The notes under the pieces are model-generated. The model was not told where the DNA came from and did no database searches. It saw only the letters and a list, made by a program, of their open reading frames with translations. The translations under genes were made by a program, and so were the position numbers. Of a stretch of DNA of 32,000 bases, positions 2,276-25,449 are shown piece by piece. Positions within the stretch are counted from its first letter, which is position 1. Every line of letters starts with the position of its first letter. Origin of the DNA: Ferroglobus placidus DSM 10642 (GTDB taxonomy: Archaea; Halobacteriota; Archaeoglobi; Archaeoglobales; Archaeoglobaceae); assembly GCF_000025505.1 (NCBI RefSeq), contig NC_013849.1, positions 1,500,001 through 1,532,000 of the forward strand, read 5' to 3'.

Positions 2276-3538
2276 ATGAGTGTCGAGGAAGTTTACGAAG
2301 TCATAAGAAAACACACGGAATTTTACAAAAACTCCCTCCCGCTGATAGCGAGCGAAAACATAACGAGCAAGTTCGTTAGAAATTGTTACATCAGCGATCT
2401 CGGGCATAGATATGCTGAAGGGAAAATAGGGGAGAGGTTTTACGAGGGTTGCAGCTTCGTGGACGAAATCGAGTTAATGGCTGTAAACCTCATGAAAGAG
2501 CTCGTTAAAGCTCCCCACGTTAACGTTCAGCCGATAAGCGGTGTCGTAGCAAACATGGCTGGATTTTTCGCTTTAACAAATCCGGGAGATAAAATATTCG
2601 CCCTCTCAATTCCTTCCGGAGGTCACATTAGTCATGAGAAGTATTCCGCAGCGGGTTTGAGGGGTTTGCAAGTATTGCATTACCCTTTCGATGCTGAAAT
2701 TATGAACATAGACGTTGACGAGACTAAGAAGCTTGCGGAAAAGGAGAAGCCGAAGCTTTTCGTTTTGGGTGGCAGCCTCTTCTTATTCCCCCATCCGGTT
2801 AAGGAGATTTCGGAGATTGCTGCCGAAATTAACGCTAAGGTCATGTACGATGGGAGCCACGTTCTCGGGCTCATAGCTGGAGGAGAATTTCAAAACCCGA
2901 TGGAAGAAGGGGCTGACGTTTTAACAGCTTCCACCCACAAAACGTTTTTCGGACCTCAGAGAGCGATAATAGCTTGCAGAGAAGAGTTGGCAGATAGGGT
3001 TGATAAAGCCGTTTTCCCCGGAGTTGTGAGCAACCATCATCTAAACACTTTAGCCGGACTCGTTATCGCTGCGATGGAATTCAAGGAGTTCGGGAGAGAT
3101 TATGCGGAGCAGACCGTTAAAAATGCGAAGAGACTTGCGGAAGAACTGGCTGAGGAAGGATTAAAAGTTTTGGGAGAAGACCTCGGCTTTACCGAGTCGC
3201 ACCAAGTGGCAGTGGATGTTAGAAAACAAGGAGGAGGAGCTAAAGTTGCCAAAAAGCTTGAGAAGGCTAACATAATTCTGAACAAAAACCTGTTGCCTTG
3301 GGATTCGATTAAGGATACGGAAAACCCCTCGGGAATAAGGATCGGAGTTCAGGAGGTAACGAGGCTTGGTATGAAGGAGAGCGAAATGGACGTCATAGCC
3401 AAGCTTATAGCCGACGTGATTTTGGACAGGAGAAGCGTTGATAAAGTTAGAAAGGACGTTATCTCTTTAAAGAAGGAATTCAGCAAGGTAAAGTACACTT
3501 TCGAAGAACACGAGGCTTACGAATTTTTGAGAATTTAA
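2276..3538 (+). CDS. glyA: Serine hydroxymethyltransferase (archaeal, presumably H4MPT-dependent)
   Basis: LIASENITS, HRYAEG and the PLP-lysine region TASTHKTFFGPQRA. 420 aa. Confidence 0.93.
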   Translation: MSVEEVYEVIRKHTEFYKNSLPLIASENITSKFVRNCYISDLGHRYAEGKIGERFYEGCSFVDEIELMAVNLMKELVKAPHVNVQPISGVVANMAGFFALTNPGDKIFALSIPSGGHISHEKYSAAGLRGLQVLHYPFDAEIMNIDVDETKKLAEKEKPKLFVLGGSLFLFPHPVKEISEIAAEINAKVMYDGSHVLGLIAGGEFQNPMEEGADVLTASTHKTFFGPQRAIIACREELADRVDKAVFPGVVSNHHLNTLAGLVIAAMEFKEFGRDYAEQTVKNAKRLAEELAEEGLKVLGEDLGFTESHQVAVDVRKQGGGAKVAKKLEKANIILNKNLLPWDSIKDTENPSGIRIGVQEVTRLGMKESEMDVIAKLIADVILDRRSVDKVRKDVISLKKEFSKVKYTFEEHEAYEFLRI

Positions 3539-3584
3539 TCACTCCACGGAAAGTTATATCAGAGAGAAATTTTAATATTACAAT

Positions 3585-4088
3585 ATGACGCACCACGACG
3601 TTTTAATGACCGGAGAAGCTTTGGTTGGAGAAGGGAATGAAGTAGCCCACGTAGACATTCTGATAGGCAGGAGAGACGGACCGGTTGGGATAGCCTTCGC
3701 AATGGCTTTAGGAGCTCCCTCTCCGGGACATGGGGGATTGACGGCAATAATCGCTCCGAACTTGGCTGTTAAGCCGCCTACTGTCATAGTTCCAACCGTG
3801 ACGATAAAGAACATGAAGCAAGGTGAGTTAATCTTCGGACCGGCTCAAAAGGCTGTTGCCGACGCTGTGGCTGACGCTGTTAAGGAGGGGATTATTCCGA
3901 GAGACAAAATAGACGAGTGGTGCATAGTCGCTAACGTCTTCATCCATCCGGCGGCACAGGATAAAAAGAAGATCTACGAGTACAACTACCAAGCTACGAA
4001 GCTGGCTATAGAAAGGGCTGTGAAGAATCTGCCAACTCCCGAGGAAGTGGAAGAAAAGAGGAAAGACGCGAAGCATCCGTTCGCTTAA
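3585..4088 (+). CDS. fae: Formaldehyde-activating enzyme
   Basis: GEALVGEGNEVAHVDILIG, IAPNLAVKP, FGPAQKAVADAV, EGIIP, VFIHPAA, YNYQATKLAI and a C-terminal KHPFA. These match the Fae sequence pattern recalled from Methylobacterium and archaeal Fae. 167 aa. Confidence 0.85.
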   Translation: MTHHDVLMTGEALVGEGNEVAHVDILIGRRDGPVGIAFAMALGAPSPGHGGLTAIIAPNLAVKPPTVIVPTVTIKNMKQGELIFGPAQKAVADAVADAVKEGIIPRDKIDEWCIVANVFIHPAAQDKKKIYEYNYQATKLAIERAVKNLPTPEEVEEKRKDAKHPFA

Positions 4089-7737: not shown

Positions 7738-8412
7738 GTGAAGCTCTTCGAAATTTCTGGGTTGAAGGAAGGAAGATTGCTCAGGAGGCTGAACAGGTTC
7801 ACTCTGGAGGTTGAAGTTGATGGGAAAGTGAAGTTGGCGAACCTTCGAGATTCTGGAAGGTTGCCCGAATTAATGAAGGAAGGAAATAGAGTTTTGCTTA
7901 AGGAGAAGAAGGGAGGAAAGACCTCCTATGTTGTCTTTACGATATTTGACGAAGAAGTGCCGGTAATTGTAAACTCTTCCCTCCACGGCAAGTTAGCTGA
8001 GAAAATTCTCCTCAGCGAAGGTTACGAGATTTTGAAAAGGGAAGTGAAAGTCGAAAACAGCAGAATCGATTTCCTCGTTAAGAAAGGAGATGTCAGACTG
8101 CTCGAGGTTAAAGGGTGTACCCTCGTGAAGAACGGAATCGCTCTTTTTCCGGACTCTCCAACCGAAAGAGGCTTGAAGCATTTGACGATTCTCGAAAAAT
8201 TCGGAGGAGAAGTTCTCTTCTTGGTTATGAGGAACGACGCTGAAGTTTTGTCTCCAAATTTCGCCACTCACAAAAAATTTGCAGAGAAGCTCGAAAGCTT
8301 GTCTAAGAAGATTGAAATTAAAGCCGCAAAACTAAATCCTGTTGTGGAGAATGGCACATTAAAAATCTATCATTCCGGCTACATTCCGGTGGTATTCAAA
8401 AAAGTTATTTAA
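7738..8412 (+). CDS. sfsA: SfsA-family protein (sugar fermentation stimulation/nuclease-fold DNA-binding protein)
   Basis: RLNRFTLEV, NSRIDFLV, LLEVKGCTL and ALFPDSPTERGLKHL are SfsA hallmarks. GTG start about 25 nt after the T/A-rich box 7708-7718. Confidence 0.8.
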   Translation: MKLFEISGLKEGRLLRRLNRFTLEVEVDGKVKLANLRDSGRLPELMKEGNRVLLKEKKGGKTSYVVFTIFDEEVPVIVNSSLHGKLAEKILLSEGYEILKREVKVENSRIDFLVKKGDVRLLEVKGCTLVKNGIALFPDSPTERGLKHLTILEKFGGEVLFLVMRNDAEVLSPNFATHKKFAEKLESLSKKIEIKAAKLNPVVENGTLKIYHSGYIPVVFKKVI

Positions 8413-10587: not shown

Positions 10588-10596
10588 CTTTATATT
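10588..10596 (+). promoter_or_regulatory. TATA-like box of mutS
   Basis: CTTTATATT ends 25 nt upstream of ATG 10621, in a 165-bp AT-rich intergenic region. Confidence 0.4.
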
Positions 10597-10620: not shown

Positions 10621-13083
10621 ATGAGCGAGAAGCTAACTCCGATGATGGAGCAGTATTACAGGATTAAGCAAAAGTACAAAGATGCTTTGCTATTCTTCAG
10701 AGTCGGAGACTTCTACGAGCTTTTTGATGATGACGCAAGAGTTGCTTCGAAGGAACTCGGAATCGTGCTGACTTCGAGGGACAAGAAGCATGCGATGTGC
10801 GGAGTGCCGCATCACGCCGCTTACTCTTACATAAAAAAGCTGATAGAGAAAGGTTACAAGGTTGCGATCTGCGAGCAGGTTGAAGAGCCAACCGGAAAAA
10901 AGCTCGTTAGGAGAGAAGTCGTGAGGGTAATAACCCCCGGAACTGTCGTGGAAGAAGAGCTACTAACCACGGAAAGCAACTACCTAATGGCTCTCTTTAA
11001 AAGGGAAAAGGTGGCTCTCGCTTTCCTCGATGTCTCCACAGGAGAATTTTTCGTCACGAGCGTTAAAAATGTTGATGAGGCGATTTGCGAAGTTCTCAAG
11101 TATTCTCCTGTAGAGTGCTTAATTCCGGAAAGCTTCGAGGAAGTCGAGGAGTTGGAGAAGCTCGTTAAAAACGTTAGGAGAATTGAAGATGAGCAGTTTA
11201 ACCTGAAGAGGTCTCTGGAAGTTTTAAAAGACGTTGCAAATTTCCAAGCTCTGGAGTTGAGCGAGGAGGAAATTTTAGCTTGCGGAGCAGTTTTAAACTA
11301 CGCTAAAAACTCCCTTCTCTTTTCCAAACCAGCTTTAAAGCTTCAAAAACTGGAGAGATCAGAGTACATGGTTCTCGATTCGACGACGATCAAAAACCTC
11401 GAAATTTTCAGAAACCTTGTCGACGGCGGCAGAAGAGGAACTTTGCTCGACGTTATAGACAAAACTGTCACAGCGATGGGAAGCAGGTTGCTGAAGAAGT
11501 GGCTTCAGAGACCTCTTTTAGACGTAACGGAAATCGAGAGAAGGCTCGATGCTGTCGAAGAGTTGAAAGAAAAATCCTTCGTCAGGAGGGTTTTGAGAGA
11601 AACTCTTGAGGATGTCTACGATCTCGAAAGAATTATCACGAGGCTCGAACTCGGAAAAGCCAACCCAAAAGATCTCGTTGCTTTGAAGAACTCTCTTAAA
11701 GCTGTCGGAAAGATCAAGAAGTTCGATTTTCAATCTAAAAAACTTAGAGATCTCGTTTACGGAATGAATCCGATGGAAGAACTGTGTTCTTTAATAGAAA
11801 AGGCGATAGTGGAAGATCCTCCGGCAAACGTGAAGGATGGAGGAGTAATTAGGGAAGGATTCGACGAGGAGCTTGACGAGTTAAGAAAAGCGAAGAAAGA
11901 GCAGGAAGAGTTTATAAAACGATTGGAAGAGAGGGAAAGAAAGAGAACCGGAATAGATAATCTGAGGGTTGGTTACAATAACGTTTTCGGCTACTACATA
12001 GAGATACCGAAGAGCAAGGCTAAAAATCTGCCGAGGTATTACATTAGAAAGCAAACCCTCGTGAACGCTGAGAGGTTTACTATTCCGGAATTAAAGGATA
12101 GAGAGGAGAAGATTTTAGCTTACGAGGAGAGAATAAGAATTCTCGAGCAGGAGATTTTCGAGAGAATAAGAAGAGAAGTTGTCAGGCATGCTGAAAAGGT
12201 TAAGGATTCTGCCGAAAGGGTTGCTGAGCTCGACGTTCTCTGTTCTCTGGCTGAGGTTGCCACCCTCTACAACTACACCCGCCCAAAGGTGAACGAAGGC
12301 TTTGACATAATCATCAGAGACGGGAGGCATCCGGCGGTGGAAACAACAACGAAGTTCGTTCCGAACGACGTAAATCTGACGGAGAACAGCAGAATTTTAA
12401 TAATAACGGGTCCCAACATGGCTGGAAAATCCACTTATTTAAGGCAGGTTGCGTTGATAACGATTCTCGCTCAGATAGGGAGCTTCGTTCCGGCAAGTTA
12501 TGCTGTCGTAGGAATTGTGGACAAGATATTCACGAGAATAGGGCTTGTGGATGATATAACGAGAGGGAGAAGCACGTTTATGGTAGAGATGCTCGAAATC
12601 GGGAGAATTTTAAATAACGCAACAAAGAGGAGCTTAATTCTCCTTGACGAGGTCGGAAAGAGCACGGGAACGAAGGAAGGACTGAGCTTGGCTTGGGCTA
12701 TAATAGAGTACTTGCACGAGCTCGGAGCTAAAGTCCTTTTCGCAACCCACTATCACGAACTTTCGAAGCTTGAGAACGAGCTCGCTGGAGTGAAGAACTA
12801 CCATTTCAGGCTTAAGGAAGAGAACGGAAAGGTTGAGTTCGACAGGAAAATTAGGAGAGGTTTTTCTAAGGAAAGCTACGGGATAAAGATCGCGGAGATG
12901 GCTAATTTACCGAAGAGAGTTGTTGAAAGAGCCTACGAAATTTTGAATTCCGAGAACGTCAACGGGGAGGTGCCTGAAATAGTCGAGGAAATTTCGAAGA
13001 TTGACGTCATGAATCTGACTCCCGTTCAGGCTTTAGTTGAGCTTGAGAGGATTGTAAGAAAATGCAGAGAGTTGAAGAGCTGA
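10621..13083 (+). CDS. mutS: DNA mismatch repair protein MutS (full-length MutS1 type)
   Basis: TPMMEQYYRIKQKY, the mismatch-recognition motif RVGDFYELF, MCGVPHH, Walker A GPNMAGKSTYLRQ, LLDEVG, FATHYHEL and the C-terminal LTPVQAL helix. 820 aa. Confidence 0.93.
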   Translation: MSEKLTPMMEQYYRIKQKYKDALLFFRVGDFYELFDDDARVASKELGIVLTSRDKKHAMCGVPHHAAYSYIKKLIEKGYKVAICEQVEEPTGKKLVRREVVRVITPGTVVEEELLTTESNYLMALFKREKVALAFLDVSTGEFFVTSVKNVDEAICEVLKYSPVECLIPESFEEVEELEKLVKNVRRIEDEQFNLKRSLEVLKDVANFQALELSEEEILACGAVLNYAKNSLLFSKPALKLQKLERSEYMVLDSTTIKNLEIFRNLVDGGRRGTLLDVIDKTVTAMGSRLLKKWLQRPLLDVTEIERRLDAVEELKEKSFVRRVLRETLEDVYDLERIITRLELGKANPKDLVALKNSLKAVGKIKKFDFQSKKLRDLVYGMNPMEELCSLIEKAIVEDPPANVKDGGVIREGFDEELDELRKAKKEQEEFIKRLEERERKRTGIDNLRVGYNNVFGYYIEIPKSKAKNLPRYYIRKQTLVNAERFTIPELKDREEKILAYEERIRILEQEIFERIRREVVRHAEKVKDSAERVAELDVLCSLAEVATLYNYTRPKVNEGFDIIIRDGRHPAVETTTKFVPNDVNLTENSRILIITGPNMAGKSTYLRQVALITILAQIGSFVPASYAVVGIVDKIFTRIGLVDDITRGRSTFMVEMLEIGRILNNATKRSLILLDEVGKSTGTKEGLSLAWAIIEYLHELGAKVLFATHYHELSKLENELAGVKNYHFRLKEENGKVEFDRKIRRGFSKESYGIKIAEMANLPKRVVERAYEILNSENVNGEVPEIVEEISKIDVMNLTPVQALVELERIVRKCRELKS

Positions 13084-13586
13084 AGAAAAAACTTGAGGAA
13101 ATTGTAAGAGAGCTCGAAGAAATGCAATCTCTCCTAAAAGTTAAAGCTCTGGGAGAAGCTGTAGAAAGGATTAAAATTGCCATCAAAGAGCTCGAAGGTT
13201 TTGAGAAGAAGGGAAGCGAAAGCTTTTCCCACTACGACTTGAAAATAAAGCTCCTCGAGATGTTTAAAGGCTCCCACTATCTCGAAAGCGAGAGGACAAA
13301 ACTAAGCAAGTTTGGAGTGAGACCGGATGCTGTAGTTATAAAAGACGACGCTGTCGTATTAATCGAAGTCGAGAAAGATAAAAAGAACTTTTTGAAAAAA
13401 GTTAGGAAGCTCAAAAAAGTTAAAGACAAGCTTTTGGAGAGTCCTATATTCACCGGAAGGAAAATCAAATTTGTTTTCGGGCTTGTTGAATTCGAGATCG
13501 ATGAAGAGCTTAAAAAAGAGGTTTTAAGTCTCGGTGATGCGGAAGTCTACTCCTCTTTTGGTGGCGAGTTGAAGAGGTTGCTTTAG
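13062..13586 (+). CDS. Hypothetical protein with N-terminal coiled coil and a PD-(D/E)xK (restriction-endonuclease-fold) signature
   Basis: ATG 13062 overlaps the last 22 nt of mutS. The first roughly 50 aa show a heptad-like K/E/L pattern. The motif GVRPDAVVIKDDAVVLIEVEKDKK (nt 13320-13376) gives D89...E102-x-E104-K105. Confidence 0.5.
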   Translation: MQRVEELKKKLEEIVRELEEMQSLLKVKALGEAVERIKIAIKELEGFEKKGSESFSHYDLKIKLLEMFKGSHYLESERTKLSKFGVRPDAVVIKDDAVVLIEVEKDKKNFLKKVRKLKKVKDKLLESPIFTGRKIKFVFGLVEFEIDEELKKEVLSLGDAEVYSSFGGELKRLL

Positions 13587-13661: not shown

Positions 13662-13675
13662 AAAAGTTTAAATAT
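13662..13675 (+). promoter_or_regulatory. BRE/TATA promoter of the mto-type operon
   Basis: AAAAGTTTAAATAT, with TTTAAATA ending 33 nt upstream of ATG 13707. An identical 14-mer occurs at 22787-22800. Confidence 0.55.
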
Positions 13676-13706
13676 GATATTCTACAATGATTAATTGGGT
13701 GTAAAC

Positions 13707-14732
13707 ATGACCCCAAAGGAAAGGATTAGGAAAATTTTCTCCAGGGAGAAGCCTGATAGGCTGGCATGTTTTAGCGGTATGGGTAACGTGACGGTAGAAG
13801 GTTTGAAGAAGTACGACTATGCCTTCTACGAAATTCACCTCGATGCAGAGAAGATGGCTAACGCTGCTTGCTCAAGTTACGAACTCTACGGATTTGAATG
13901 TGCAGTAGCTCCTTTCGATCTCGGTGTTGAAGCTGAGGTTCTCGGGGCTGAGATGAACTTCTACACCCACAAGGGCAAGGAGGACATAGTGTATCCGACG
14001 GTGAAGAAAAAAGCCATAAACGAGCCGGAAGATTTGAACGTTCCTGAAAAAATAGAAGAGAAGGGCAGAGTTCCACTTGTTTTAAAAGCCTTGGAAATTA
14101 TGCAGAAGAGAGTTGGAGAAGAAGTGCCGATTGCAACTTACATTCTCGGACCCTACACCTTAGCCGGGCAGATAATGGATTTGGAGAAGCTTTTAAAGAT
14201 GTCTTTCAAAAACCCCGACAGAATAAACGAGCTGCTCTCTCAGCTAACAGACTTCTTAGCCGAACTCGGAAGAATTTATCAGGATGCCGGTATAGATTAC
14301 TTGACAGTCAGAGAAATGGGCGCTCCAACAGACGTTTTAAGCCCAAGAATGTTCAAAAACCTAATCTTACCCCATCTGAAAGAGCTTTTCTTAAAGCTGA
14401 AAGAGCCAACGGTTTTGCACATTTGCGGAGATACGAACATGATAGTCGAATTAATGTGGCAGAGCGGAGCAACAGCGATAAGTGTTGAACAGAAGAATGA
14501 TGTGGCTAAAACAAGAGAAAAGCTCGGCGAAGAAGCTATAATTTTCGGAAACATAGACCCATACGGAACGCTCGTTCTTGGAACTCCTGAGGATATAAGA
14601 AATGCTGTCAAAAAGGCTATAGTGGGGGGAGTTAGCAGCGTTTGGCCGGGTTGCGATATTTGGCCAGCGGTCTCAAAAGAAAACATGCTCACGTTTGTTG
14701 AAGCTGTTAAGGAATTTGGAAAACTTCAGTGA
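13707..14732 (+). CDS. mtoB: UroD/MtaA-family substrate:corrinoid methyltransferase (MtoB-like, candidate O-demethylase)
   Basis: URO-D-fold methyltransferase with the zinc motif LHICGDT plus WPGCD, and GNIDP. First gene of a coupled methyltransferase/corrinoid/activase/MtrH-like set. The ORF track start TTG 13695 is less likely than ATG 13707. Confidence 0.7.
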   Translation: MTPKERIRKIFSREKPDRLACFSGMGNVTVEGLKKYDYAFYEIHLDAEKMANAACSSYELYGFECAVAPFDLGVEAEVLGAEMNFYTHKGKEDIVYPTVKKKAINEPEDLNVPEKIEEKGRVPLVLKALEIMQKRVGEEVPIATYILGPYTLAGQIMDLEKLLKMSFKNPDRINELLSQLTDFLAELGRIYQDAGIDYLTVREMGAPTDVLSPRMFKNLILPHLKELFLKLKEPTVLHICGDTNMIVELMWQSGATAISVEQKNDVAKTREKLGEEAIIFGNIDPYGTLVLGTPEDIRNAVKKAIVGGVSSVWPGCDIWPAVSKENMLTFVEAVKEFGKLQ

Positions 14733-14741
14733 GGTGATAGG

Positions 14742-15437
14742 ATGGTTGACGAAGCTAAAAGAAAGGAAATCTTGGAGAAGTTAAAGAGAGGAGTAGTTGA
14801 ATTCGATGAAGATCTCGTGAGGGAAGCAGCGAAGGAAGCTTTAGAAGTTGGAATGGATGCCCTCGATGCGATTATGAACGGACTCGTTGCGGGAATGGAA
14901 GAAGTTGGGGAGCTATTCGACAAAGGTGAGTACTTCGTTCCGGAAGTGCTGATGTGTGCTGACGCCCTTTATGCTGGACTCGAAATTCTTAGACCTCACG
15001 TGAAGAAGGAAGACATAAAGGTGAAAGGACAGGTCGTCATCGGAGTAGTGGAGGGAGACGTTCACGATATAGGCAAGAACCTCGTGAAGATGATGTTCGA
15101 AGTTGCCGGCTTTGAGGTAATTGATCTTGGAAAGGATGTCCCCCTCGAAAAGTTCGTGGAGGAGTCTTTGAAAAGTGATGCTGACATAGTTGCTTTATCG
15201 GCGATGATGACCACTACGATGCTCGGAATTCCCAAAGTCATTCAGATGATAAGAGAAAAGAATCCGAAAGCAAAGATTCTCGTTGGAGGTGCTCCGATAT
15301 CAAAAGAGACCGCCGAGAAGTGGGGAGCTGACGGGTGGGCTCCCGATGCGACTAATGCAGTGCAGGAAGCTATAAACATGATAAAAGGTTTAAAGAAAGA
15401 AATAATGGGAGAAGAAAAGGGGGAAGAGAAGAATTGA
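14742..15437 (+). CDS. mtoC: Corrinoid (B12-binding) protein, MtaC/MtoC type
   Basis: N-terminal helical cap, then the B12-binding domain with DxHxxG (GDVHDIGKNLV), LSAMMTTTM and VGGAP. GAGGTGA RBS lies in the 9-nt spacer after mtoB. Confidence 0.85.
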   Translation: MVDEAKRKEILEKLKRGVVEFDEDLVREAAKEALEVGMDALDAIMNGLVAGMEEVGELFDKGEYFVPEVLMCADALYAGLEILRPHVKKEDIKVKGQVVIGVVEGDVHDIGKNLVKMMFEVAGFEVIDLGKDVPLEKFVEESLKSDADIVALSAMMTTTMLGIPKVIQMIREKNPKAKILVGGAPISKETAEKWGADGWAPDATNAVQEAINMIKGLKKEIMGEEKGEEKN

Positions 15438-15455
15438 TCCTCTTCGGTGATTTTT

Positions 15456-17348
15456 ATGGAAAAGTGTAAAATTATTTTTCAGCCTGAAGGTAAAAGAGGT
15501 GAGTTTCCCCCGGGAACAACTATTCTGGACGCTGCAAGGGAGATTGGTGTGGATATAGAAGCGATTTGTGGTGGAAAGCTTACTTGCGGGAAGTGCCAAG
15601 TCGTTATTGAGCAGGGTGAGGAAAACCTCTCCCAGATGACGGAAGATGAGAGGAGACTGCTTGACAAAAGAAAAGCCGGGAAAAACTATAGACTTGCTTG
15701 CGTAACAAGATTTTACGGAGACGTGGTTGTTTTCGTTCCGGAAGAGAGTAGAGGTGGAGAGCAGATAATTCTCAAAGAGGGTGTTGAAGTTTCGGTAACA
15801 ATAGACCCTGCTGTGAAAAAGTATTACCTTGAGCTTCCGAAGCCACATTTAAAAGATGATCTCGGAGATTTTGAAAGAATTTTAAACGCTTTAAGAGAGG
15901 ATTACGGAATAGAAAACGTCGATATAGATTACGAGGTTTTAAAAAAGCTTCCGGATGTTTTGAGGGAAAGCGATTGGAAAGTAACCGTTACAATCTGGAA
16001 CGATAGAGAAATAATTGACGTCGAACCCGGATATAAGGCTGAGAACGTTTACGGTTTAGCTGTTGACATCGGAACCACAACTGTGGTTGGCTATCTAACG
16101 GATTTGAGAACCGGTAAAATCCTTGCTATAGATTCAATGATGAATCCTCAGGTGCCCTACGGAGAAGATGTGATGAGCAGAATAACGTATGCGATGCAAA
16201 ATCCAGAGGGTCTGGAAGTTTTGAACAAAAAGATAGTGGAGGGAATAAATCAGATTCTTGTGAACGTTTGCAAAGAAGCGGGAATTAAGCCTGAAGAAGT
16301 TAGCGAAGTGACTATAGTTGGAAACACAGCCATGCACCACATTTTTCTGAAGATAGATCCGCAGTATCTTGCTGTAGCTCCATACGTCCCGGCAATTCAC
16401 CGATCTCACGATGTTAAAGCGAGGGACATTGGAATTAAGATTGCAAAAGGTGGAAACGTCCACGTTTTACCAATAGAGGCTGGATGGGTTGGTGCAGACA
16501 ACGTGGCTGTTCTGATAGCTACAGAGCCTTACAAAAGAGATGAAATGTGCTTGGTTATAGACATCGGGACGAATGGAGAAATTGTTCTGGGGAACAGAGA
16601 GAGACTGCTTTCCTGCTCAGCCGCAGCAGGACCGGCTTTAGAGGGTGCTCATATAAAACACGGAATGAGAGCAGCGACTGGAGCTATAGAGCGAATCAGA
16701 ATAGATCCAGAAACTTTCGAGCCGGAATACAAAACGATAGGCAACGCCCCTCCACGAGGAATATGCGGCTCTGGGATAATCGATGCGGCTGCCGAACTTT
16801 ACAGGGTTGGTATAGTTAAGAAGAACGGAAGGTTCAATCTCGATCTCGATACGCCGAGAGTTAGAGTTGTTGATGGACAGCCGGAGTACGTTATAGCTTG
16901 GGCAAATGAAACGGCTATAGGACACGATATAGTGATTACCCAGAAAGACATAAGAGAGATCCAGCTTGCGAAAGGAGCTATGTGTGCCGGAGCCCACATA
17001 CTCATGAAGGAAATGGGAGTTGAGAGTGTTGACAGAGTAATTGTTGCCGGAGCCTTCGGAAACTACATCGACAAGATTTCAGCTTTAATAATAGGTTTGG
17101 TTCCCGATGTGCCTGTGGATAGGATAGAGTCGGTAGGAAACGCTGCTGGAGTTGGAGCGAGACTCGCTTTGATAAGCAGAGAGAAGAGAAGAGAAGCTAA
17201 CGAGATCGCGAGGAAAGTTGAGCATATCAAGCTGGCTGTACATCCGGATTTCGAAAGGGAATTCTCGATGGCGATGTACTTCCCTCACATGGATAAGAAG
17301 AGGTATCCGAGGCATGAAGAGGTTTTGAAGGTGAGAGGTGCTGAGTAA
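15456..17348 (+). CDS. mtoD: Reductive activase of corrinoid enzymes (2Fe-2S ferredoxin domain + ASKHA/DUF4445 ATPase; RACE/MtoD type)
   Basis: N-terminal AICGGKLTCGKCQV...LACVT ferredoxin motif. The C-terminal part has DIGTTTV and DIGTNGE actin-fold phosphate loops. An alternative GTG start lies at 15447. Confidence 0.8.
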   Translation: MEKCKIIFQPEGKRGEFPPGTTILDAAREIGVDIEAICGGKLTCGKCQVVIEQGEENLSQMTEDERRLLDKRKAGKNYRLACVTRFYGDVVVFVPEESRGGEQIILKEGVEVSVTIDPAVKKYYLELPKPHLKDDLGDFERILNALREDYGIENVDIDYEVLKKLPDVLRESDWKVTVTIWNDREIIDVEPGYKAENVYGLAVDIGTTTVVGYLTDLRTGKILAIDSMMNPQVPYGEDVMSRITYAMQNPEGLEVLNKKIVEGINQILVNVCKEAGIKPEEVSEVTIVGNTAMHHIFLKIDPQYLAVAPYVPAIHRSHDVKARDIGIKIAKGGNVHVLPIEAGWVGADNVAVLIATEPYKRDEMCLVIDIGTNGEIVLGNRERLLSCSAAAGPALEGAHIKHGMRAATGAIERIRIDPETFEPEYKTIGNAPPRGICGSGIIDAAAELYRVGIVKKNGRFNLDLDTPRVRVVDGQPEYVIAWANETAIGHDIVITQKDIREIQLAKGAMCAGAHILMKEMGVESVDRVIVAGAFGNYIDKISALIIGLVPDVPVDRIESVGNAAGVGARLALISREKRREANEIARKVEHIKLAVHPDFEREFSMAMYFPHMDKKRYPRHEEVLKVRGAE

Positions 17349-18298
17349 TGTTTTGCGTTGAATCGAAAGTAGTTGAGATCGGTGGAATCAAGATTGGGGG
17401 GAAGGGGGAAAATCCGGTAGTCTTAGTGGGAACGATGTTTTACACCGGACACAAGATAGTGGAGAAAAGGAAGGAAGGGAAGTTCGACAGGAAAAAGGCT
17501 GAGGAGCTGATAAACATGCAGGAAACTCTGAGCGAAGAAACCGGGATTCCGTCCATGCTCGATATAGTCGCTCTGTCCGAGGAAGAGTTTAAGAAGTACA
17601 TAGATTTCGTGGCTGAAGTGACGGAAATGCCGTTCATGATAGATGCTTGGAAAATTCCACCAAAGATAGGGGCTGCTAAATACGTGAAGGAAATAGGTCT
17701 GGAGGATAGAGTAGTTTACAACTCCTTATCTCCTTGGAGCGAGGATTTGGAGAAGGAGGTTAACGAACTTAGAGAAATTGGGCTGAAGCACGGTTTGACA
17801 GTTGCATACAACATGAACGATCCGAGTGTTGAGGGGAGGATAAGAATTCTAAAGGAGACGCTCCTCCCAGCTTTGGAAAAAGCCGGATTCGAAAACATTC
17901 TCATTGACACATCCGTTTTGAACACTCCTTCGATAGCTCTTTCTCTCTTAGCCTGTAAAAAGATTAAGGAGGTGTTCGGACATCCGGTTGGTTGCGCCCC
18001 TTCAAACGGCACGGATGTTTGGAAGTATCCGAGGGAAAAGTGGGGCAAACTCGGTTTCGCAGCTGTAGATAGCGCAGCTCATGCGATAACAGCTTTGCTA
18101 TGGAACGACTTCATACTCTACGGAGCGATAGAAAATGCGAAGTGGGTTTTCCCAGCTGTAGCAACAGCCAACTCAATTCTGGCGACCTTCATATACGATG
18201 AAGTTGGCAAACTGCCTGAAGGAGAGCATCCGCTGAACAAACTCTTCCCCGAGTTTGTGGAGCAGCTAGGGGCAGTAAAATGTGGAAATCGATCATAA
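17348..18298 (+). CDS. mtoA: MtrH-family methyl-corrinoid:tetrahydromethanopterin methyltransferase (MtoA type)
   Basis: Near-collinear with recalled MtrH: IGG..GE.P, GTMFYTGHKIVE, AEELIN.Q, YIDFVAEV, YNS, DPSVEG, IDTSV, GHPVG, ILYGAIENA..FPAVA. TAATG overlap with mtoD. Confidence 0.85.
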   Translation: MFCVESKVVEIGGIKIGGKGENPVVLVGTMFYTGHKIVEKRKEGKFDRKKAEELINMQETLSEETGIPSMLDIVALSEEEFKKYIDFVAEVTEMPFMIDAWKIPPKIGAAKYVKEIGLEDRVVYNSLSPWSEDLEKEVNELREIGLKHGLTVAYNMNDPSVEGRIRILKETLLPALEKAGFENILIDTSVLNTPSIALSLLACKKIKEVFGHPVGCAPSNGTDVWKYPREKWGKLGFAAVDSAAHAITALLWNDFILYGAIENAKWVFPAVATANSILATFIYDEVGKLPEGEHPLNKLFPEFVEQLGAVKCGNRS

Positions 18299-19284
18299 TC
18301 TTTCTATTTTTAGCTGTAGCAATCATCATTTCAGGTTGTGCGGAGGAAAAATCCGTAAAGCTCGTTAAGCTTTCCCCTCCAGACATGCTTGAACAGATAA
18401 AAATAGGGAAGATAGACGCTTTTATAGCCTGGGAGCCTTTTCCGAGTAAAGCTGTCAAAAGCGGGCAGAAGATTTTGATGTATTCCGGAGACATATGGAA
18501 AAATCACCCGTGCTGCGTTGTTGCTTACAAGGTTGGAAATGCTGACGAAAAAATGCTTGAAGCTTTGGTCTGGGCTCACGTAAAGGCGACGAGATTCATA
18601 AACGATGAGAAAAATCGGAATAAAGTGGTTATCTACGCTTCCCAATTCACAGGGCTGGATGAAGAGACGGTAAAGATGGCTTTAAAGAATATAAAGTACG
18701 TGGAGTATCCGGATGGGAAGGAGTTCAGGCATTACTACGAGTTTTTGAAGGAGGCAGCAATTCTGAAGAAATCTATCGAAGACTTGGGATACAAAAGCGA
18801 GGAAGAGTTTTTCGAGAAGTTTTTGAGGAAAGACGTTTACGAAAAAGTTGTTACTAAACTTGAGGAAAACCCGAATTACGTTCCGGAAAAAGCTGGAAAA
18901 ATTAGACTCGGATACATAACAGCCGATCTACACCATCTCGCCTTGTACGTCGCTTTGAAAGAAGGGTACTTTGACAAAGTTTTTGAGAAAGTTGATTTAA
19001 AGCAGTATCCCAACGGAGTTGCGATAATGGAAGCTTTTAAACTCGGAGAGCTTGATGCAGCTTATCTTGGTGGTGCTCCTGCAACTTTGAAGAGGATAAA
19101 CGATGGAATAGAAATTTCAATAGTTGCCGGAGTTAACAACGAAGGCTCTGCTTTAGTTGTGAGAGAGGGAATAAACTCGCCAAAGGATTTAGCTGGGAAA
19201 ACTGTAGCGATTCCGGGATTTGGAACTGTCCAAGACTTCCTAATGAGAAAAGTCCTAAGGGAGGGAGGGTTGAAGGGAAGTTGA
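18280..19284 (+). CDS. ABC transporter substrate-binding lipoprotein, NMT1/SsuA (nitrate/sulfonate/bicarbonate) family, circularly permuted
   Basis: Signal peptide plus lipobox-like IIISGC. aa 207-334 (IRLGY...DLAGKTVAIPGFGTVQDFLMRKVLREGGL) match the SsuA N-terminal half. aa 25-85 (VKLSPPDMLEQIKIGKIDAFIAWEPF...HPCCVV) match the SsuA C-terminal half. The start overlaps mtoA by 19 nt. Confidence 0.75.
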   Translation: MWKSIIIFLFLAVAIIISGCAEEKSVKLVKLSPPDMLEQIKIGKIDAFIAWEPFPSKAVKSGQKILMYSGDIWKNHPCCVVAYKVGNADEKMLEALVWAHVKATRFINDEKNRNKVVIYASQFTGLDEETVKMALKNIKYVEYPDGKEFRHYYEFLKEAAILKKSIEDLGYKSEEEFFEKFLRKDVYEKVVTKLEENPNYVPEKAGKIRLGYITADLHHLALYVALKEGYFDKVFEKVDLKQYPNGVAIMEAFKLGELDAAYLGGAPATLKRINDGIEISIVAGVNNEGSALVVREGINSPKDLAGKTVAIPGFGTVQDFLMRKVLREGGLKGS

Positions 19285-20042
19285 ACCAGAAAATTTATTC
19301 CGCTCTCCTCTTCATCTCTCTCTGGTACCTCTTATATTTTCTGAACGTTCTTCCAGCCTTTCACGTAGTTGTCGTAACTTTTTTAGAGCTTGTTGTTGAA
19401 GCGGAGCCTGTTCTTGGAAAGACTCTCCTTCAGCATGCAGCTTCGAGCCTATTAAGAGTTTTAGCTGGAGCAACAGTAGCTTTTTCCCTCTCAATCCCCC
19501 TCGGAATTTTGATGTGGTTTTCGAGGACATACAATCTCTTACATCCAGCTATAGAGGTTCTAAGACCAATTCCCCCTCTTGCATGGATCCCCCTCTCTTA
19601 CATTCTCTTCGCCTCATTCCCCAACCCAACGGTTTTCGCTCAAATTTTTATCGTAGCTGTCGGAGCTTTCTTTCCAAGCTTCGTAACGATTTCCGATTAC
19701 GTCAGAGGGATTCCTCAGGAGTTCATCGAATTGGCGAAAGTTTTTGGTGCGAGAAACTTTGATTTGTTAACGAAAATAGTTCTTCCTTATTCCCTCCCCG
19801 GGATAATCACCGGTATTAGGGTTGGACTCGGGGTTGGATGGATGAGCATAATCGCTGCCGAGATGATTGCTTCCTCAGGCTCTGGTTTAGGATATTTCAT
19901 TCTCGTCATGTACGAAGTCGGAGGGAGAATGCCGGAAATACTTGCTGGAATGGCTATGATCGGTCTTATAGGATATTTGATGAATACTCTTCTTTTTAAA
20001 CTGGAGGAAAGATTTCCATGGCGCTTGAAATCAGAAACGTGA
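19281..20042 (+). CDS. ABC transporter permease (SsuC/TauC-type, BPD_transp_1)
   Basis: Six predicted TM segments. EAA-loop-like ELAKVFGARNFDLLTKIVLPYSLPGIITGIRVGLGVGW. TTGA start/stop overlap with the binding-protein gene. Confidence 0.85.
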   Translation: MNQKIYSALLFISLWYLLYFLNVLPAFHVVVVTFLELVVEAEPVLGKTLLQHAASSLLRVLAGATVAFSLSIPLGILMWFSRTYNLLHPAIEVLRPIPPLAWIPLSYILFASFPNPTVFAQIFIVAVGAFFPSFVTISDYVRGIPQEFIELAKVFGARNFDLLTKIVLPYSLPGIITGIRVGLGVGWMSIIAAEMIASSGSGLGYFILVMYEVGGRMPEILAGMAMIGLIGYLMNTLLFKLEERFPWRLKSET

Positions 20043-20761
20043 AGAAGAGTTTTGGAGATTTAAAAGTTCTCGACGGAGTGAGCTTTGAAGTAGAGAAAGG
20101 CGAGTTCGCTTGTATTGTAGGGGAGTCCGGATGCGGAAAAACAACTCTGCTTAAGATAGTGGCTGGACTTGTTAAAGCAGATGAGGGAGAAGTTTTATAC
20201 GATGGGAGAGAGCTGAAAACGGAAGACATAGCTTTCGTTTTTCAGGACGATCGTCTTTTGCCTTGGAGAACCGCCTTAGAAAACGTGATGTTTTCCTTGG
20301 AGATGAGAATGCGAGAGCTGGATAAGAAGCGGAGGGAAGAGATAGCAAAGAGTTTCCTTGAACTCGTGGGATTGAAAGGATTCGAAAACTACTACCCCCA
20401 CCAGCTCAGCGGAGGAATGAGGCAGCGAGTCGGAATTTGTCGAGCTTTAGCGGTAAATCCTAAAGTGCTGCTCATGGATGAACCCTTTGCAAGTCTCGAC
20501 GCTCAGACGAGGAACAGGATGCAACTCGAACTTCTGAGGATTTGGGAAAGGGAAAGAAAAACTATTCTTTTCGTAACCCACAGCGTTGACGAGGCTGTTT
20601 TCTTGGCAGATAAAGTCGTCGTTCTTTCTCCACGCCCGACAAAAGTCCTGAAAGTTTTGGAAATTAATCTGGAGAGACCGAGGGACAGGACTTCTCCAGA
20701 GTTCATAGGATACAGAAGAGAAATTATAAACTTTCTTCAGGGGTCTTCTTTCTTAATTTGA
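20018..20761 (+). CDS. ABC transporter ATP-binding protein (SsuB/TauB-type)
   Basis: Walker A GESGCGKTT, Q-loop FQDDRLLPW, signature LSGGMRQRV, Walker B LLMDEPFASLD and H-loop FVTHS. GGAGG RBS at 20003-20007. Confidence 0.92.
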   Translation: MALEIRNVKKSFGDLKVLDGVSFEVEKGEFACIVGESGCGKTTLLKIVAGLVKADEGEVLYDGRELKTEDIAFVFQDDRLLPWRTALENVMFSLEMRMRELDKKRREEIAKSFLELVGLKGFENYYPHQLSGGMRQRVGICRALAVNPKVLLMDEPFASLDAQTRNRMQLELLRIWERERKTILFVTHSVDEAVFLADKVVVLSPRPTKVLKVLEINLERPRDRTSPEFIGYRREIINFLQGSSFLI

Positions 20762-22841: not shown

Positions 22842-23261
22842 ATGGGAAACAAGGAGTGTGAAGAATACGTCAAAGAAAGAATGAAACTGATGCCAAGATT
22901 TTTGAAGACCGTCTGTGAGGTTTGGCCGGAAGCTGCTAAAAAGTTTGCAGATTTCTATGAGGTAATCTGGAGGGATGGGGCTTTAGATAGAAAGACCAAG
23001 GAGTTAATTTTCACTGCCATAGGAGTAGCGACTGCCTCTCCAAGATGTATTGTTCATGTAATTGCCGCTGTTGAAGCTGGTGCTACTGATGAGGAAATTC
23101 TCGAAGCCGTCACTGTAGGATTCATCGGAGCTGGCTTCTATCCAAACAATCCGGGAATTCCGTACGCTTTCGAATACGCTGTAAAAGCGATTGAAGTTGC
23201 TCAGAAGTATAGAAGAGGAGAAGATTGGGAATACTTAAAACCGCCGGAGTTCAGAGGATAA
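22842..23261 (+). CDS. Carboxymuconolactone decarboxylase (CMD/AhpD-like) family protein
   Basis: KTKELIFTAIGVATASPRCIVHVIAAVEAGATDEEILEAV matches the CMD helix pair. The usual CxxC position reads SPRC. Confidence 0.7.
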   Translation: MGNKECEEYVKERMKLMPRFLKTVCEVWPEAAKKFADFYEVIWRDGALDRKTKELIFTAIGVATASPRCIVHVIAAVEAGATDEEILEAVTVGFIGAGFYPNNPGIPYAFEYAVKAIEVAQKYRRGEDWEYLKPPEFRG

Positions 23262-23311
23262 CTTTCTATTTTTTCAGTTTTACAATTTTTGTGTTGCTTT
23301 GGGGTGAAAAA

Positions 23312-24343
23312 ATGCGTCCGAAAGACATTCTCCTTGAAGCTTTTGAATTAGGAGTTCCGGAAAGAGTTCCTGCGGTAATTTTTGGAGGAGGTATGTGGAC
23401 GATTAAAAATTCTGGCAAGGATTTCCTTTACTATATTGGCAAGCCGAAGGAGTATGCGGAGCTTATAGTTAAAACAGCAGACATTCTGCAGTCGGACATG
23501 GTTTACCCTGGCTCGGGATACAACAACTTTCTGGCTGCTGCGATAGGTGGAAAGATTAAGGTTAGGCACATAGGTGCTCCCGATTTGGAGGGACCAATTA
23601 TAAACTCTCCGGAGGACCTTGAAGCTTTGGAAATTGACAAAATTTATGAAAACGAAGCTCTTCAAACTATTTGGAAAGCTTCCGAGATTGTTTACAACGA
23701 GATTGGGGATAAATATTTAGTCGGGACGACTTCCTGGGGTCCTTTCACGAAAGCCGGAAATTTGAGAGGTGTAGAGCAGCTCATGAGGGACATCTACAAG
23801 AACAAGGAATTTGCTAAAAAAGTGATAGAGTTCGCCAAAGACCTCATAATGGCTTTTTACGAGCCAGTAGTTAAGGATGCGGGGTTAGAGGCTGTGAGCA
23901 TAGCAGACCCGACGGCAAGTGGAGATTTGATATCGAGGAGGCACTTTTTAGAGTTCGCATTACCACCTTTAAAGGAACTGATAGACGAGATGAAAAAGCG
24001 TAAAATAGCTGTGTTTTTACACATTTGCGGAGATACGAGCGATAAGTTGAGGGAGATAGCGGAAAGCAAAGCCAGCTGCTTCAGCTTGGATCACAAAGTA
24101 GATCTCGGTTATGCCAAGAGCACGCTTAAGAGTGTTATATGTATAGCCGGCAACGTCGATCCAGTTTCGGTTTTAAACGACGGCACTCCAGAATATGTAG
24201 AGGAAGTGTCAAATAAGTGCATTCACATTGCTGCTGAAGGTGGCGGCTACGTCCTATGCCCGGGATGTGATATCCCTCCAACAGTTCCCCTTGAAAACAT
24301 TCAGGCTTTTATAAGAGCTGCAAGAAAAACCAAGCTCAGATAA
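23312..24343 (+). CDS. UroD/MtaA-family methyltransferase, paralogue 2 (no adjacent corrinoid protein)
   Basis: FLHICGDTSD, AGNVDP and LCPGCDIPP are the same Zn and fold motifs as 13707..14732. ATG 23312 is preceded by GGGGTGA. The ORF track start at 23225 would add a hydrophobic, non-homologous extension. Confidence 0.8.
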   Translation: MRPKDILLEAFELGVPERVPAVIFGGGMWTIKNSGKDFLYYIGKPKEYAELIVKTADILQSDMVYPGSGYNNFLAAAIGGKIKVRHIGAPDLEGPIINSPEDLEALEIDKIYENEALQTIWKASEIVYNEIGDKYLVGTTSWGPFTKAGNLRGVEQLMRDIYKNKEFAKKVIEFAKDLIMAFYEPVVKDAGLEAVSIADPTASGDLISRRHFLEFALPPLKELIDEMKKRKIAVFLHICGDTSDKLREIAESKASCFSLDHKVDLGYAKSTLKSVICIAGNVDPVSVLNDGTPEYVEEVSNKCIHIAAEGGGYVLCPGCDIPPTVPLENIQAFIRAARKTKLR

Positions 24344-24409
24344 CTATTTTTTATTTTTCATTTGATTACAAGCCAACTTTTATAAACGAGTTGTTAACTA
24401 TAATTAATT

Positions 24410-24943
24410 ATGAGCGAAATAAACGGCGTTGATGTGGAATATTTAAAGCAGTTAGTGGAGACTGTGAAGAAGCATCCGGAGCTCGGCAGAACTCTCTGGA
24501 GAGCAAGATCTAAATGGAAAGACGGTTTCAAAGTTGAAGTGAACATAAGGGACTTCACAATCAGAATGGATGAACCAAAAGATCTCGGAGGCACCAATAC
24601 AGCTCCAAACATGGTGGAATTCGTATTAGGAGCTTTAGGAGCTTGCCTTGTTGTTGGTTATGTTATGAACGCAGCGATTAGAGGAATAGAGCTCGATAAA
24701 GTTGAAATAGATGTAGAGGGAGACATCGACCTTCCCGGCTTTTTTGGCTTGGAGTCTCCGGAAAAGGTCTCTCCGGGATTTACAAACATCAGAGCAAGGG
24801 TATTCCTTAAAACGAAAAAACCCGTAAGTAAAGAGGAGCTTAAAGAGCTTCACGAAACAGTTGTGAAAACCTCACCTGTCGGAAACACGCTGATGAAGCC
24901 TGTTAATCTGGAAGTAAAATTGGAGGAAAGGAGAACTGTTTAA
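24410..24943 (+). CDS. OsmC/Ohr-family protein (single-Cys variant)
   Basis: GGTNTAPNMVEFVLGALGACLVVG is the OsmC core. The second conserved Cys (CP) position reads TSPV. TATA TTTTATAAA (24378-24386) ends 24 nt before the ATG. Confidence 0.8.
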   Translation: MSEINGVDVEYLKQLVETVKKHPELGRTLWRARSKWKDGFKVEVNIRDFTIRMDEPKDLGGTNTAPNMVEFVLGALGACLVVGYVMNAAIRGIELDKVEIDVEGDIDLPGFFGLESPEKVSPGFTNIRARVFLKTKKPVSKEELKELHETVVKTSPVGNTLMKPVNLEVKLEERRTV

Positions 24944-25311
24944 CCTACACAAATGACTTTGTCTGCTTCGAGAGCGAGATAAATGAACGTGGCAGCCCCG
25001 GCAACCTCAGCTTCATCGATTATGTCCTCTTCTTTTATTTTTCTCACTACAAGCGTTTGAGAGCAAACATAGATTTTCACTCCTGCTTCAATCGCCTCGT
25101 TCAATCTCTGCCTTATTGTAGGTACTCCCGGCTTTACCTCTTCTTTATCCAAAGCTCCCTTGACCATTATCTCCACTCCATCCTGAAAGCAGAAAACTGT
25201 CGTTTTTATCCCGAGATTGGCACTTAGGGCTGCGAGCATTAGCGTAGTTCTCGCTATATCCGGGTAATTCAAGCCCTTACTCAGAACGAAAACAAGCTTT
25301 TTCTCCGCCAT
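24940..25311 (-). CDS. DsrE/DsrF-like family protein (COG2044-like)
   Basis: About 123 aa alpha/beta protein. KLVFVLSKG, VFCFQDGV and IYVCSQTL resemble DsrE-type proteins. The ATG at 25311 fits the TATA (minus strand, 25331-25339) better than TTG 25326. Confidence 0.6.
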   Translation of the reverse strand: MAEKKLVFVLSKGLNYPDIARTTLMLAALSANLGIKTTVFCFQDGVEIMVKGALDKEEVKPGVPTIRQRLNEAIEAGVKIYVCSQTLVVRKIKEEDIIDEAEVAGAATFIYLALEADKVICVG

Positions 25312-25449
25312 GGGGTAAAATTTCAAAGGAATTTTATAGCTTTTACTTCCGCTCCAAGTCTAATCGAGACAATAACTTCAAACTTCTACCAAAAGTCGTG
25401 GAAAATCTACAGCAAAATTATAATTGCTAAAAATCAGAGATCTTTGGAT

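Follow-up and report, generated by a model that had tools for sequence, protein, structure and literature searches.

A two-gene unit of Ferroglobus placidus pairs MutS1 with a predicted PD-(D/E)xK-fold protein and is a candidate MutL-independent mismatch-incision module

The window analyzed here, a 32,000-nucleotide (nt) stretch of Ferroglobus placidus DSM 10642 (contig NC_013849.1, positions 1,500,001 to 1,532,000), contains a mutS gene whose 3' end overlaps the start of a gene for a protein of 174 amino acids (aa). We consider it moderately probable that these two genes form a self-contained, MutL-independent mismatch-incision module. More tentatively, we propose that they represent a third archaeal route of mismatch repair, in which MutS1 would directly license a dedicated, hitherto undescribed PD-(D/E)xK nuclease, with neither MutL nor NucS, and which would have been kept as a two-gene cassette of hyperthermophiles (Archaeoglobaceae, Methanocaldococcus, and relatives). 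An initial annotation of this DNA had suggested a MutL-independent module for mismatch incision or anti-recombination. This suggestion is supported, as the checks on fold, residues, synteny, and MutL or NucS content refuted nothing; DNA cutting by the 174-aa protein, its control by MutS, and mismatch correction rather than anti-recombination as the outcome are what we infer from them.

The domains and motifs of the 820-aa product of the upstream open reading frame (ORF) identify it unambiguously as MutS1. Pfam MutS domains I to V are all present, in order and above their cutoffs (E values of 1.7e-17 to 1.8e-79), and the scores against the NCBIfam mutS1 equivalogs reach 939 bits for TIGR01070 (cutoff, 641.7) and 1006 bits for PRK05399 (cutoff, 480). 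Next to the mismatch-binding and Walker motifs (Table 1), the protein carries the signature STFMVEM, FATHYHEL at residues 707 to 714, and the C-terminal helix LTPVQAL at residues 799 to 805, which bears out the MutS1 hallmarks recognized in the initial annotation. A GDFYE-type motif was found in every variant listed from the alignment of 120 MutS sequences.

The 174-aa ORF is 100% identical to Ferp_1745 of F. placidus DSM 10642, annotated as "hypothetical protein," and both ORFs and their overlap are confirmed as first read. It has no family assignment in Pfam, NCBIfam, PADLOC, or PHROGs, and our literature search found no mention of Ferp_1744 or Ferp_1745, nor of an archaeal pairing of MutS with a PD-(D/E)xK protein. 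When 1.84 billion representative proteins were scanned in full with HMMER, 11 matches were obtained at an E value of ≤1e-3, comprising nine full-length members, one C-terminal fragment, and one apparent coiled-coil false positive, a 1098-aa protein that aligned in seven stretches, the best of them to the N-terminal helix. In all, 23 members were aligned, with 28 to 81% identity to the window protein. Outside the mutS overlap, the pairwise ratio of nonsynonymous to synonymous substitution rates (dN/dS) is 0.05 to 0.11 in five of six pairs, the sixth being saturated at synonymous sites, so the small gene is under strong purifying selection. A chance overlapping ORF is ruled out by these dN/dS values together with the 22 distinct conserved clusters described below.

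Loci carrying the small gene were collected by searching genomes and metagenomes with the small protein and were supplemented by contigs that encode MutS homologues or divergent members. Clustering at 95% identity gave 22 small-protein clusters, one of which lies at a contig end, leaving 21 testable. In 19 of these 21, mutS is located directly upstream on the same strand, and two additional loci, from Methanocaldococcus indicus and an Archaeoglobus sp., agree with this order. The junction is also conserved: in all 15 junctions that were read, the window included, an ATG-CA(G/A) start lies within the (K/R)-C-(R/K) codons of MutS, giving overlaps of 16 to 25 nt, and the gene-call coordinates indicate similar overlaps in loci L021, L037, and L038. 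The small gene is thus probably coexpressed with mutS from its overlapping start. TATA-like boxes precede both mutS and the gene downstream of the pair, so the pair seems to form a single transcription unit, and the second box (TTTAAATA) suggests a separate unit downstream.

The surroundings of the pair vary from lineage to lineage. It is flanked by PfpI and MtaA-like genes in Ferroglobus, by DUF134 and PheRS-beta in a MAG (metagenome-assembled genome) locus of an uncultured relative (L002), by transposase and thermosome genes in Methanocaldococcus sp. 28A, by Rpr2 in M. indicus, and by LysRS and PolD in another lineage. Only the mutS/small-gene pair itself is conserved among these differing flanks, so the synteny check came out in favor of the pairing across several unrelated contexts. 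In Methanocaldococcus sp. 28A (CP187540.1), DDE_Tnp_IS240 and DDE_Tnp_1 transposase genes lie just upstream of the pair, which fits the gain of the cassette by horizontal transfer in that genus. A MutS only 48% identical to that of the window also precedes P0131, the most divergent member. A 100-N scaffold gap falls exactly at the junction of these two genes, which explains why gene calling missed this MutS and gave P0131 a truncated N terminus.

Both exceptions to the linkage come from a single lineage, whose small gene is found downstream of rpS17e and overlaps the end of dapA (DHDPS) by 4 nt. Assembly GCA_027051265.1 of this lineage encodes both mutS and the small gene on different contigs, showing that their co-occurrence outlives the loss of linkage. 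Its MutS belongs to a sister sub-clade and has no small gene adjoining it. Loci L023 and L025 belong to the same lineage, which constitutes a natural "uncoupled" variant. Taken over all loci, the small protein occurs essentially only together with this MutS clade.

The structure of the small protein was predicted with AlphaFold2 (AF2), using a two-sequence alignment (predicted local distance difference test [pLDDT], 83.6) and an 11-sequence alignment (pLDDT, 90.0; predicted TM score, 0.81). In the latter model, the N-terminal segment first described as coiled-coil-like takes the form of a two-helix hairpin (residues 2 to 25 and 28 to 43), followed by an alpha/beta core. This core consists of a helix (residues 55 to 66), three strands (72 to 74, 90 to 93, and 97 to 104), a helix (107 to 124), a strand (134 to 142), a further helix (148 to 155), and two final strands (160 to 166 and 169 to 172), and so contains the alpha-beta-beta-beta-alpha-beta arrangement of the PD-(D/E)xK superfamily. 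When both models were queried against the PDB with Foldseek, the top 50 matches were almost all PD-(D/E)xK nucleases. Among them are the nickase Nt.BspD6I (with its partner subunit), BsmI, FokI, SdaI, Bse634I, and the R2 restriction-like endonuclease, as well as arenavirus and bunyavirus cap-snatching endonucleases, Hjc, XisH, Bax1, and Card1/Cdn1/Can2. At the sequence level, sub-threshold Pfam matches were obtained to AHJR-like (PF18743) in 20 of the 23 members (best E value, 5.4e-5), to PDDEXK_10 (PF07788) in 12 (best E value, 1.7e-4), and to Hjc in two. The restriction-endonuclease fold proposed in the initial annotation is thus upheld by two models, their Foldseek lists, and these Pfam matches. 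A search of the family profile against PDB chain sequences gave nothing significant; the best matches were a designed protein and Psu, and the R2 restriction-like endonuclease appeared at an E value of about 1.5. No GHKL or MutL_C Pfam match was found in the 174-aa protein.

Eleven residues are invariant in the 23 members, namely, M1, A33, E53, H57, E75, R87, P88, D89, E102, E104, and K113. The D...E-x-K arrangement originally assigned to this protein is not correct as read: D89, E102, and E104 are invariant, but the lysine is not the one proposed, since K105 is variable (T in most homologues) and K113 is invariant, which makes the motif PD...ExE...K. On the AF2 model, the invariant residues sit where the active site of a PD-(D/E)xK enzyme is expected, with H57 on the first core helix. 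A lysine relocated to the helix after strand 3 is seen in cap-snatching endonucleases, and an ExE element is seen in BamHI. Given these positions and these known variants, the active site looks functional, with K113 as the likely catalytic lysine. The N-terminal hairpin is a candidate element for docking to MutS or for dimerization.

The partner MutS proteins are themselves distinctive. Among the best 120 matches to the window MutS, the closest relatives (55 to 97% identical) come from Ferroglobus, Archaeoglobus, Archaeoglobaceae MAGs, four Methanocaldococcus genomes, and other MAGs, and the next ones, which are Asgard, Thermoplasmata, and bacterial, fall to ≤52% identity. In a neighbor-joining tree, the partner MutS proteins form one clade, in which the sub-clade with unlinked genes is basal. 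The canonical D-loop DEIGRGTSTxDG is absent from the window MutS and is replaced by DEVGKSTGTKEG. This deviation after Walker B, already pointed out in the initial annotation, is real and not a one-off: DE(V/I)GK(S/N)T is found in all clade members displayed (Fpl and P0003-P0045), in contrast to DEIGRGTSTFDG in nearly all displayed outgroup MutS1 proteins. In the full alignment of 76 outgroup sequences, the positions of R680K and G681S are occupied by R in 99% and by G in 100%. The deviant D-loop is a variant inside the MutS1 family and gives no ground for exclusion from it. Further clade-specific changes (T488I, V572T, Q232L, I690L, and V694I), like these two, affect positions that are 78 to 100% conserved in the outgroup, and the substitutions may reflect rewired ATPase signaling or a lost MutL interface. 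In addition, the bacterial beta-clamp motif in the C-terminal linker occurs in none of the 43 clade sequences, compared to 25 of the 76 outgroup sequences.

Pfam scans of the 32-kb window and the Pfam list of the syntenic contig contain no GHKL/MutL-type gene, confirming the absence of a nearby MutL stated earlier. A crude regular-expression search, which is weak evidence, found no match to MutL motifs I and III or to a NucS-like motif in 360 kb (the window and 36 loci). For the genome as a whole, we relied on the tabulated survey of Castaneda-Garcia et al. (2017; PMC5290159), in which MutS and MutL hidden Markov models were run against reference proteomes (at least 50 bits and >75% of the length) and archaeal absences were confirmed with tblastn. 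In its Supplementary Data 1, F. placidus is entered as "noNucS; idMutS-undefMutL; confirmedtblastn." Across its rows for DPANN, Euryarchaeota, and "other archaea," MutL is identified in every MutS-positive genome but three, which are F. placidus, Archaeoglobus profundus, and an unassembled Lokiarchaeum, and all eight Archaeoglobi listed are NucS-negative. These entries are good, though indirect, evidence that MutS functions in F. placidus with neither MutL nor NucS. A. profundus has the same entries in these rows (MutS identified, MutL not identified, no NucS); its MutS was not recognized among the best 120 MutS matches and may be of another type.

Based on these elements, the following scheme can be drawn for the proposed incision module. 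As a complete MutS1 with intact Phe-X-Glu and ABC ATPase motifs, the F. placidus protein should recognize mismatches and switch to an ATP-bound state like bacterial MutS. Instead of recruiting MutL, the mismatch-activated MutS would bind or activate the small nuclease directly, most likely through the conserved N-terminal hairpin (the A33-I34-E-x-L-K-I-A segment). The small protein would then nick or cleave the DNA near the mismatch, combining the roles of MutL and MutH, and the archaeal machinery for resection and resynthesis or for recombination would process the cut. For plant MSH1, a double-strand break repaired by recombination has been proposed (PMC12292046).

Several observations weigh against this scheme. 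Neither F. placidus protein has a PIP box or other PCNA-binding motif in our motif search, which leaves no visible route to strand discrimination. The Foldseek E values are weak, the best being 4.5e-3 and 5.6e-3, and no Pfam nuclease family is matched at its gathering score; the window protein, the member for which a bit score is given, reaches 15.7 bits on AHJR-like (cutoff, 26.1), the other members being rated by E value. The canonical ExK lysine is absent, so a catalytic role for K113 is deduced from its position and invariance. The genome-wide absence of MutL and NucS rests on the single 2017 survey, whose cutoffs would miss a very divergent MutL (PMC5290159). Finally, the lineage with unlinked genes indicates that physical coupling is not obligatory.

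The resolvase-like character of the nearest sequence families (AHJR-like and Hjc, in the member counts given above) and the Hjc structures among the Foldseek matches would also suit a pair that acts on recombination intermediates. In that case, MutS would sense heteroduplex mismatches and an Hjc/AHJR-like nuclease would cleave branched or heteroduplex DNA, resulting in anti-recombination or the rejection of heteroduplexes, comparable to the action of MutS2-Smr or plant MSH1. This would be consistent with the suppression of ectopic recombination by MutS-nuclease fusions such as MSH1 (PMC12292046) and with the failure of the motif search to find a strand-discrimination motif (PIP box or beta-clamp). 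However, the protein is a MutS1 with Phe-X-Glu and all five domains, not a MutS2-type protein, which is without domain I, and the Hjc and AHJR matches are sub-threshold, with nickases and restriction enzymes scoring equally well or better. We therefore regard a role in recombination as rather unlikely.

The small protein could also be functionally unrelated to MutS, for example, a resolvase, repair nuclease, or restriction-like enzyme that acts on its own and merely shares the operon, with MutS acting alone or with an unrecognized, highly divergent MutL-like partner. The lineage that has the small gene after dapA and rpS17e, away from mutS, speaks for such independence. It is nonetheless a distinctly unlikely explanation, given that the family is essentially confined to where this MutS clade occurs, that the pair stays joined through several changes of flanks and a likely transfer into Methanocaldococcus, that the genome with unlinked genes keeps both, and that the fixed-start overlap is kept across MutS proteins 55 to 72% identical to that of F. 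placidus.

Inactive PD-(D/E)xK domains exist, and the missing ExK lysine, together with a conserved helical hairpin that suggests a role in protein-protein interaction, might mark the small protein as an adaptor or regulator that has a nuclease fold but no catalytic activity, for instance, a dimerization, clamp-loading, or DNA-tethering factor for MutS. This is highly improbable in view of H57, E75, P88-D89, E102, E104, and the helix lysine, which cover all positions expected in a metal-binding PD-(D/E)xK site and are all invariant in 23 sequences, a pattern typical of active enzymes; the cap-snatching endonucleases among the Foldseek matches likewise have a helix lysine. Scarcely credible is a defense or selfish module, with a MutS-like sensor and a nuclease attacking foreign or heteroduplex DNA and spreading horizontally: the patchy distribution, a weak match to SduA_C (Shedu nuclease; E value, 0.15), and the transposase genes beside the Methanocaldococcus sp. 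28A pair are set against zero PADLOC families for the small protein, P-loop-level PADLOC matches only for MutS (best, mad8; E value of 7.7e-5 over 36 residues), housekeeping flanks (aminoacyl-tRNA synthetases, thermosome, and metabolic genes), a bona fide MutS1 equivalog, and stable contexts within Archaeoglobaceae. Exclusive co-occurrence, invariant active-site residues, and housekeeping contexts thus argue against the unrelated-nuclease, inactive-adaptor, and defense explanations.

The proposed MutL-independent module resembles the Escherichia coli MutS-MutL-MutH system in combining a MutS1 sensor with a small, separately encoded protein of the PD-(D/E)xK endonuclease fold, which would perform the incision. 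Identity with MutH was rejected, as the 23 members give no MutH Pfam match at an E value of ≤1, MutH is not among the top 50 Foldseek matches in the PDB, and sequence relation to it is undetectable. MutH also has no N-terminal helical hairpin. A further difference is that no MutL matchmaker is reported for F. placidus in the survey tables (PMC5290159). EndoMS/NucS is likewise an archaeal, MutL-independent mismatch-repair route with a PD-(D/E)xK nuclease, and the present pair occurs in a class, the Archaeoglobi, listed as NucS-negative. NucS detects the mismatch itself, with an N-terminal DNA-binding domain, and PCNA activates it (PMC6159515, PMC8228993), whereas mismatch recognition would here be delegated to MutS. 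The small protein is not NucS, having no match to the NucS Pfam family (PF01939), no PIP-like motif, and a hairpin instead of the beta-barrel DNA-binding domain. From its nearest sequence families (Hjc, AHJR-like, and PDDEXK_10) it differs in the ExE element and helix lysine in place of ExK, the extra N-terminal hairpin, and the exclusive association with mutS.

A MutS-family sensor that is equipped with its own nuclease and needs no MutL is known from the fusions MutS2-Smr, plant MSH1-GIY-YIG, and MutS7-HNH. A possible Mrr_cat-like extension of a Cyanophora MutS1 would be another such case, and the gain of nucleases by MutS proteins has been tentatively tied to the loss of MutL (PMC12292046). 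Unlike in these fusions, the putative nuclease of F. placidus is a polypeptide of its own, encoded by a gene that overlaps mutS in a conserved two-gene cassette, and represents a different, undescribed PD-(D/E)xK family; the MutS is an otherwise ordinary five-domain MutS1, and the hosts are hyperthermophilic archaea, which are otherwise assumed to have no repair based on MutS. The idea of a MutS with its own nuclease is known, and these features are what differs here.

Elsewhere in the window, a dense methyl-transfer gene cluster contains three URO-D/MtaA-like methyltransferases, a B12-binding corrinoid protein, a RACo/RamA-type corrinoid activase, an MtrH-like subunit, and an NMT1/ABC transporter, and looks like a corrinoid-dependent system for methyl- or methoxy-group utilization in Ferroglobus. 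Genes for serine hydroxymethyltransferase (SHMT) and the formaldehyde-activating enzyme (Fae) lie upstream. SfsA, encoded three genes upstream of mutS, has an OB domain and a restriction-endonuclease-like domain and hence also a PD-(D/E)xK fold; it belongs to a different family from the 174-aa protein and is not conserved beside mutS in other loci. The coordinates of all features are given in Table 1.

Table 1. Features of the mutS/small-gene unit, its unlinked counterpart, and neighboring genes (window coordinates unless a locus is named)
Feature	Position	Strand	Basis or remark
TATA-box-like TTTATATT, putative archaeal promoter of the two-gene unit	10589..10596	+	32 nt 5' of the mutS ATG; sequence reading only
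mutS, full-length MutS1, 820 aa	10621..13083	+	Passes Pfam MutS_I-V and NCBIfam mutS1 equivalog; clade monophyletic in neighbor-joining tree
GDFYE, Phe-X-Glu mismatch-binding motif, MutS domain I, residues 29-33	10705..10719	+	Read from sequence; alignment
Walker A GPNMAGKST, residues 597-605	12409..12435	+	Read from sequence; alignment
Walker B and D-loop DEVGKSTGTKEG, residues 676-687 (DE, 676-677)	12646..12681	+	Clade variant of canonical DEIGRGTSTFDG (R680K, G681S)
Gene for 174-aa MutS-associated PD-(D/E)xK-fold protein (Ferp_1745), ATG start	13062..13586	+	ORF, family alignment, model, dN/dS
22-nt out-of-frame overlap of mutS 3' end and small-gene start	13062..13083	+	ATG-CAG start within MutS K-C-R codons
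Codons for hairpin residues 2-43, including conserved A33-I34-E-x-L-K-I-A	13065..13190	+	AF2 secondary structure, conservation
Codons for invariant E53 and H57, start of first core helix	13218..13232	+	Alignment, AF2
Codon for invariant E75, just after strand 1	13284..13286	+	Alignment, AF2
Codons for invariant R87-P88-D89, "PD" element just before strand 2	13320..13328	+	Alignment, AF2
Codons for invariant E102-V-E104, end of strand 3; ExE replaces usual (D/E)xK	13365..13373	+	Alignment, AF2
Codon for invariant K113, helix after strand 3	13398..13400	+	Alignment, AF2
TATA-like box TTTAAATA before MtaA/URO-D-like gene (13695-14732)	13667..13674	+	Sequence reading only
Unlinked mutS (845 aa), assembly GCA_027051265.1	L017, 5001-7538		On a different contig from the small gene
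Unlinked small gene, assembly GCA_027051265.1	L026, 4148-4693		On a different contig from mutS
100-N scaffold gap at the mutS/small-gene junction of P0131	L022, 5131-5230		
DDE_Tnp_IS240 and DDE_Tnp_1 transposase genes, Methanocaldococcus sp. 28A	L003, 3427-5352		Just upstream of the pair
SHMT and Fae genes	2276-4088		Upstream
SfsA gene	7738-8412	+	Three genes upstream of mutS
Methyl-transfer gene cluster	13695-20761 and 23225-26517		

How hyperthermophilic archaea without MutS and MutL replicate accurately has been termed an enduring mystery (PMC8358315). NucS/EndoMS answers this question for many lineages; the Archaeoglobi are NucS-negative in the survey rows (PMC5290159), and the pair described here is a concrete candidate answer for part of this class. 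Its two proteins are small, thermostable, and easily expressed, and the change of R to K and G to S in the D-loop of the clade offers a handle on rewired ATPase signaling. Direct activation of the nuclease by MutS, if it occurs, would make the pair the simplest MutS-dependent incision system known. With MutS wired straight to the incision enzyme, it would aid in dissecting how a MutS clamp can license a nuclease in the absence of MutL, and the idea that MutS lineages losing MutL gain a nuclease would extend to a separately encoded archaeal nuclease.

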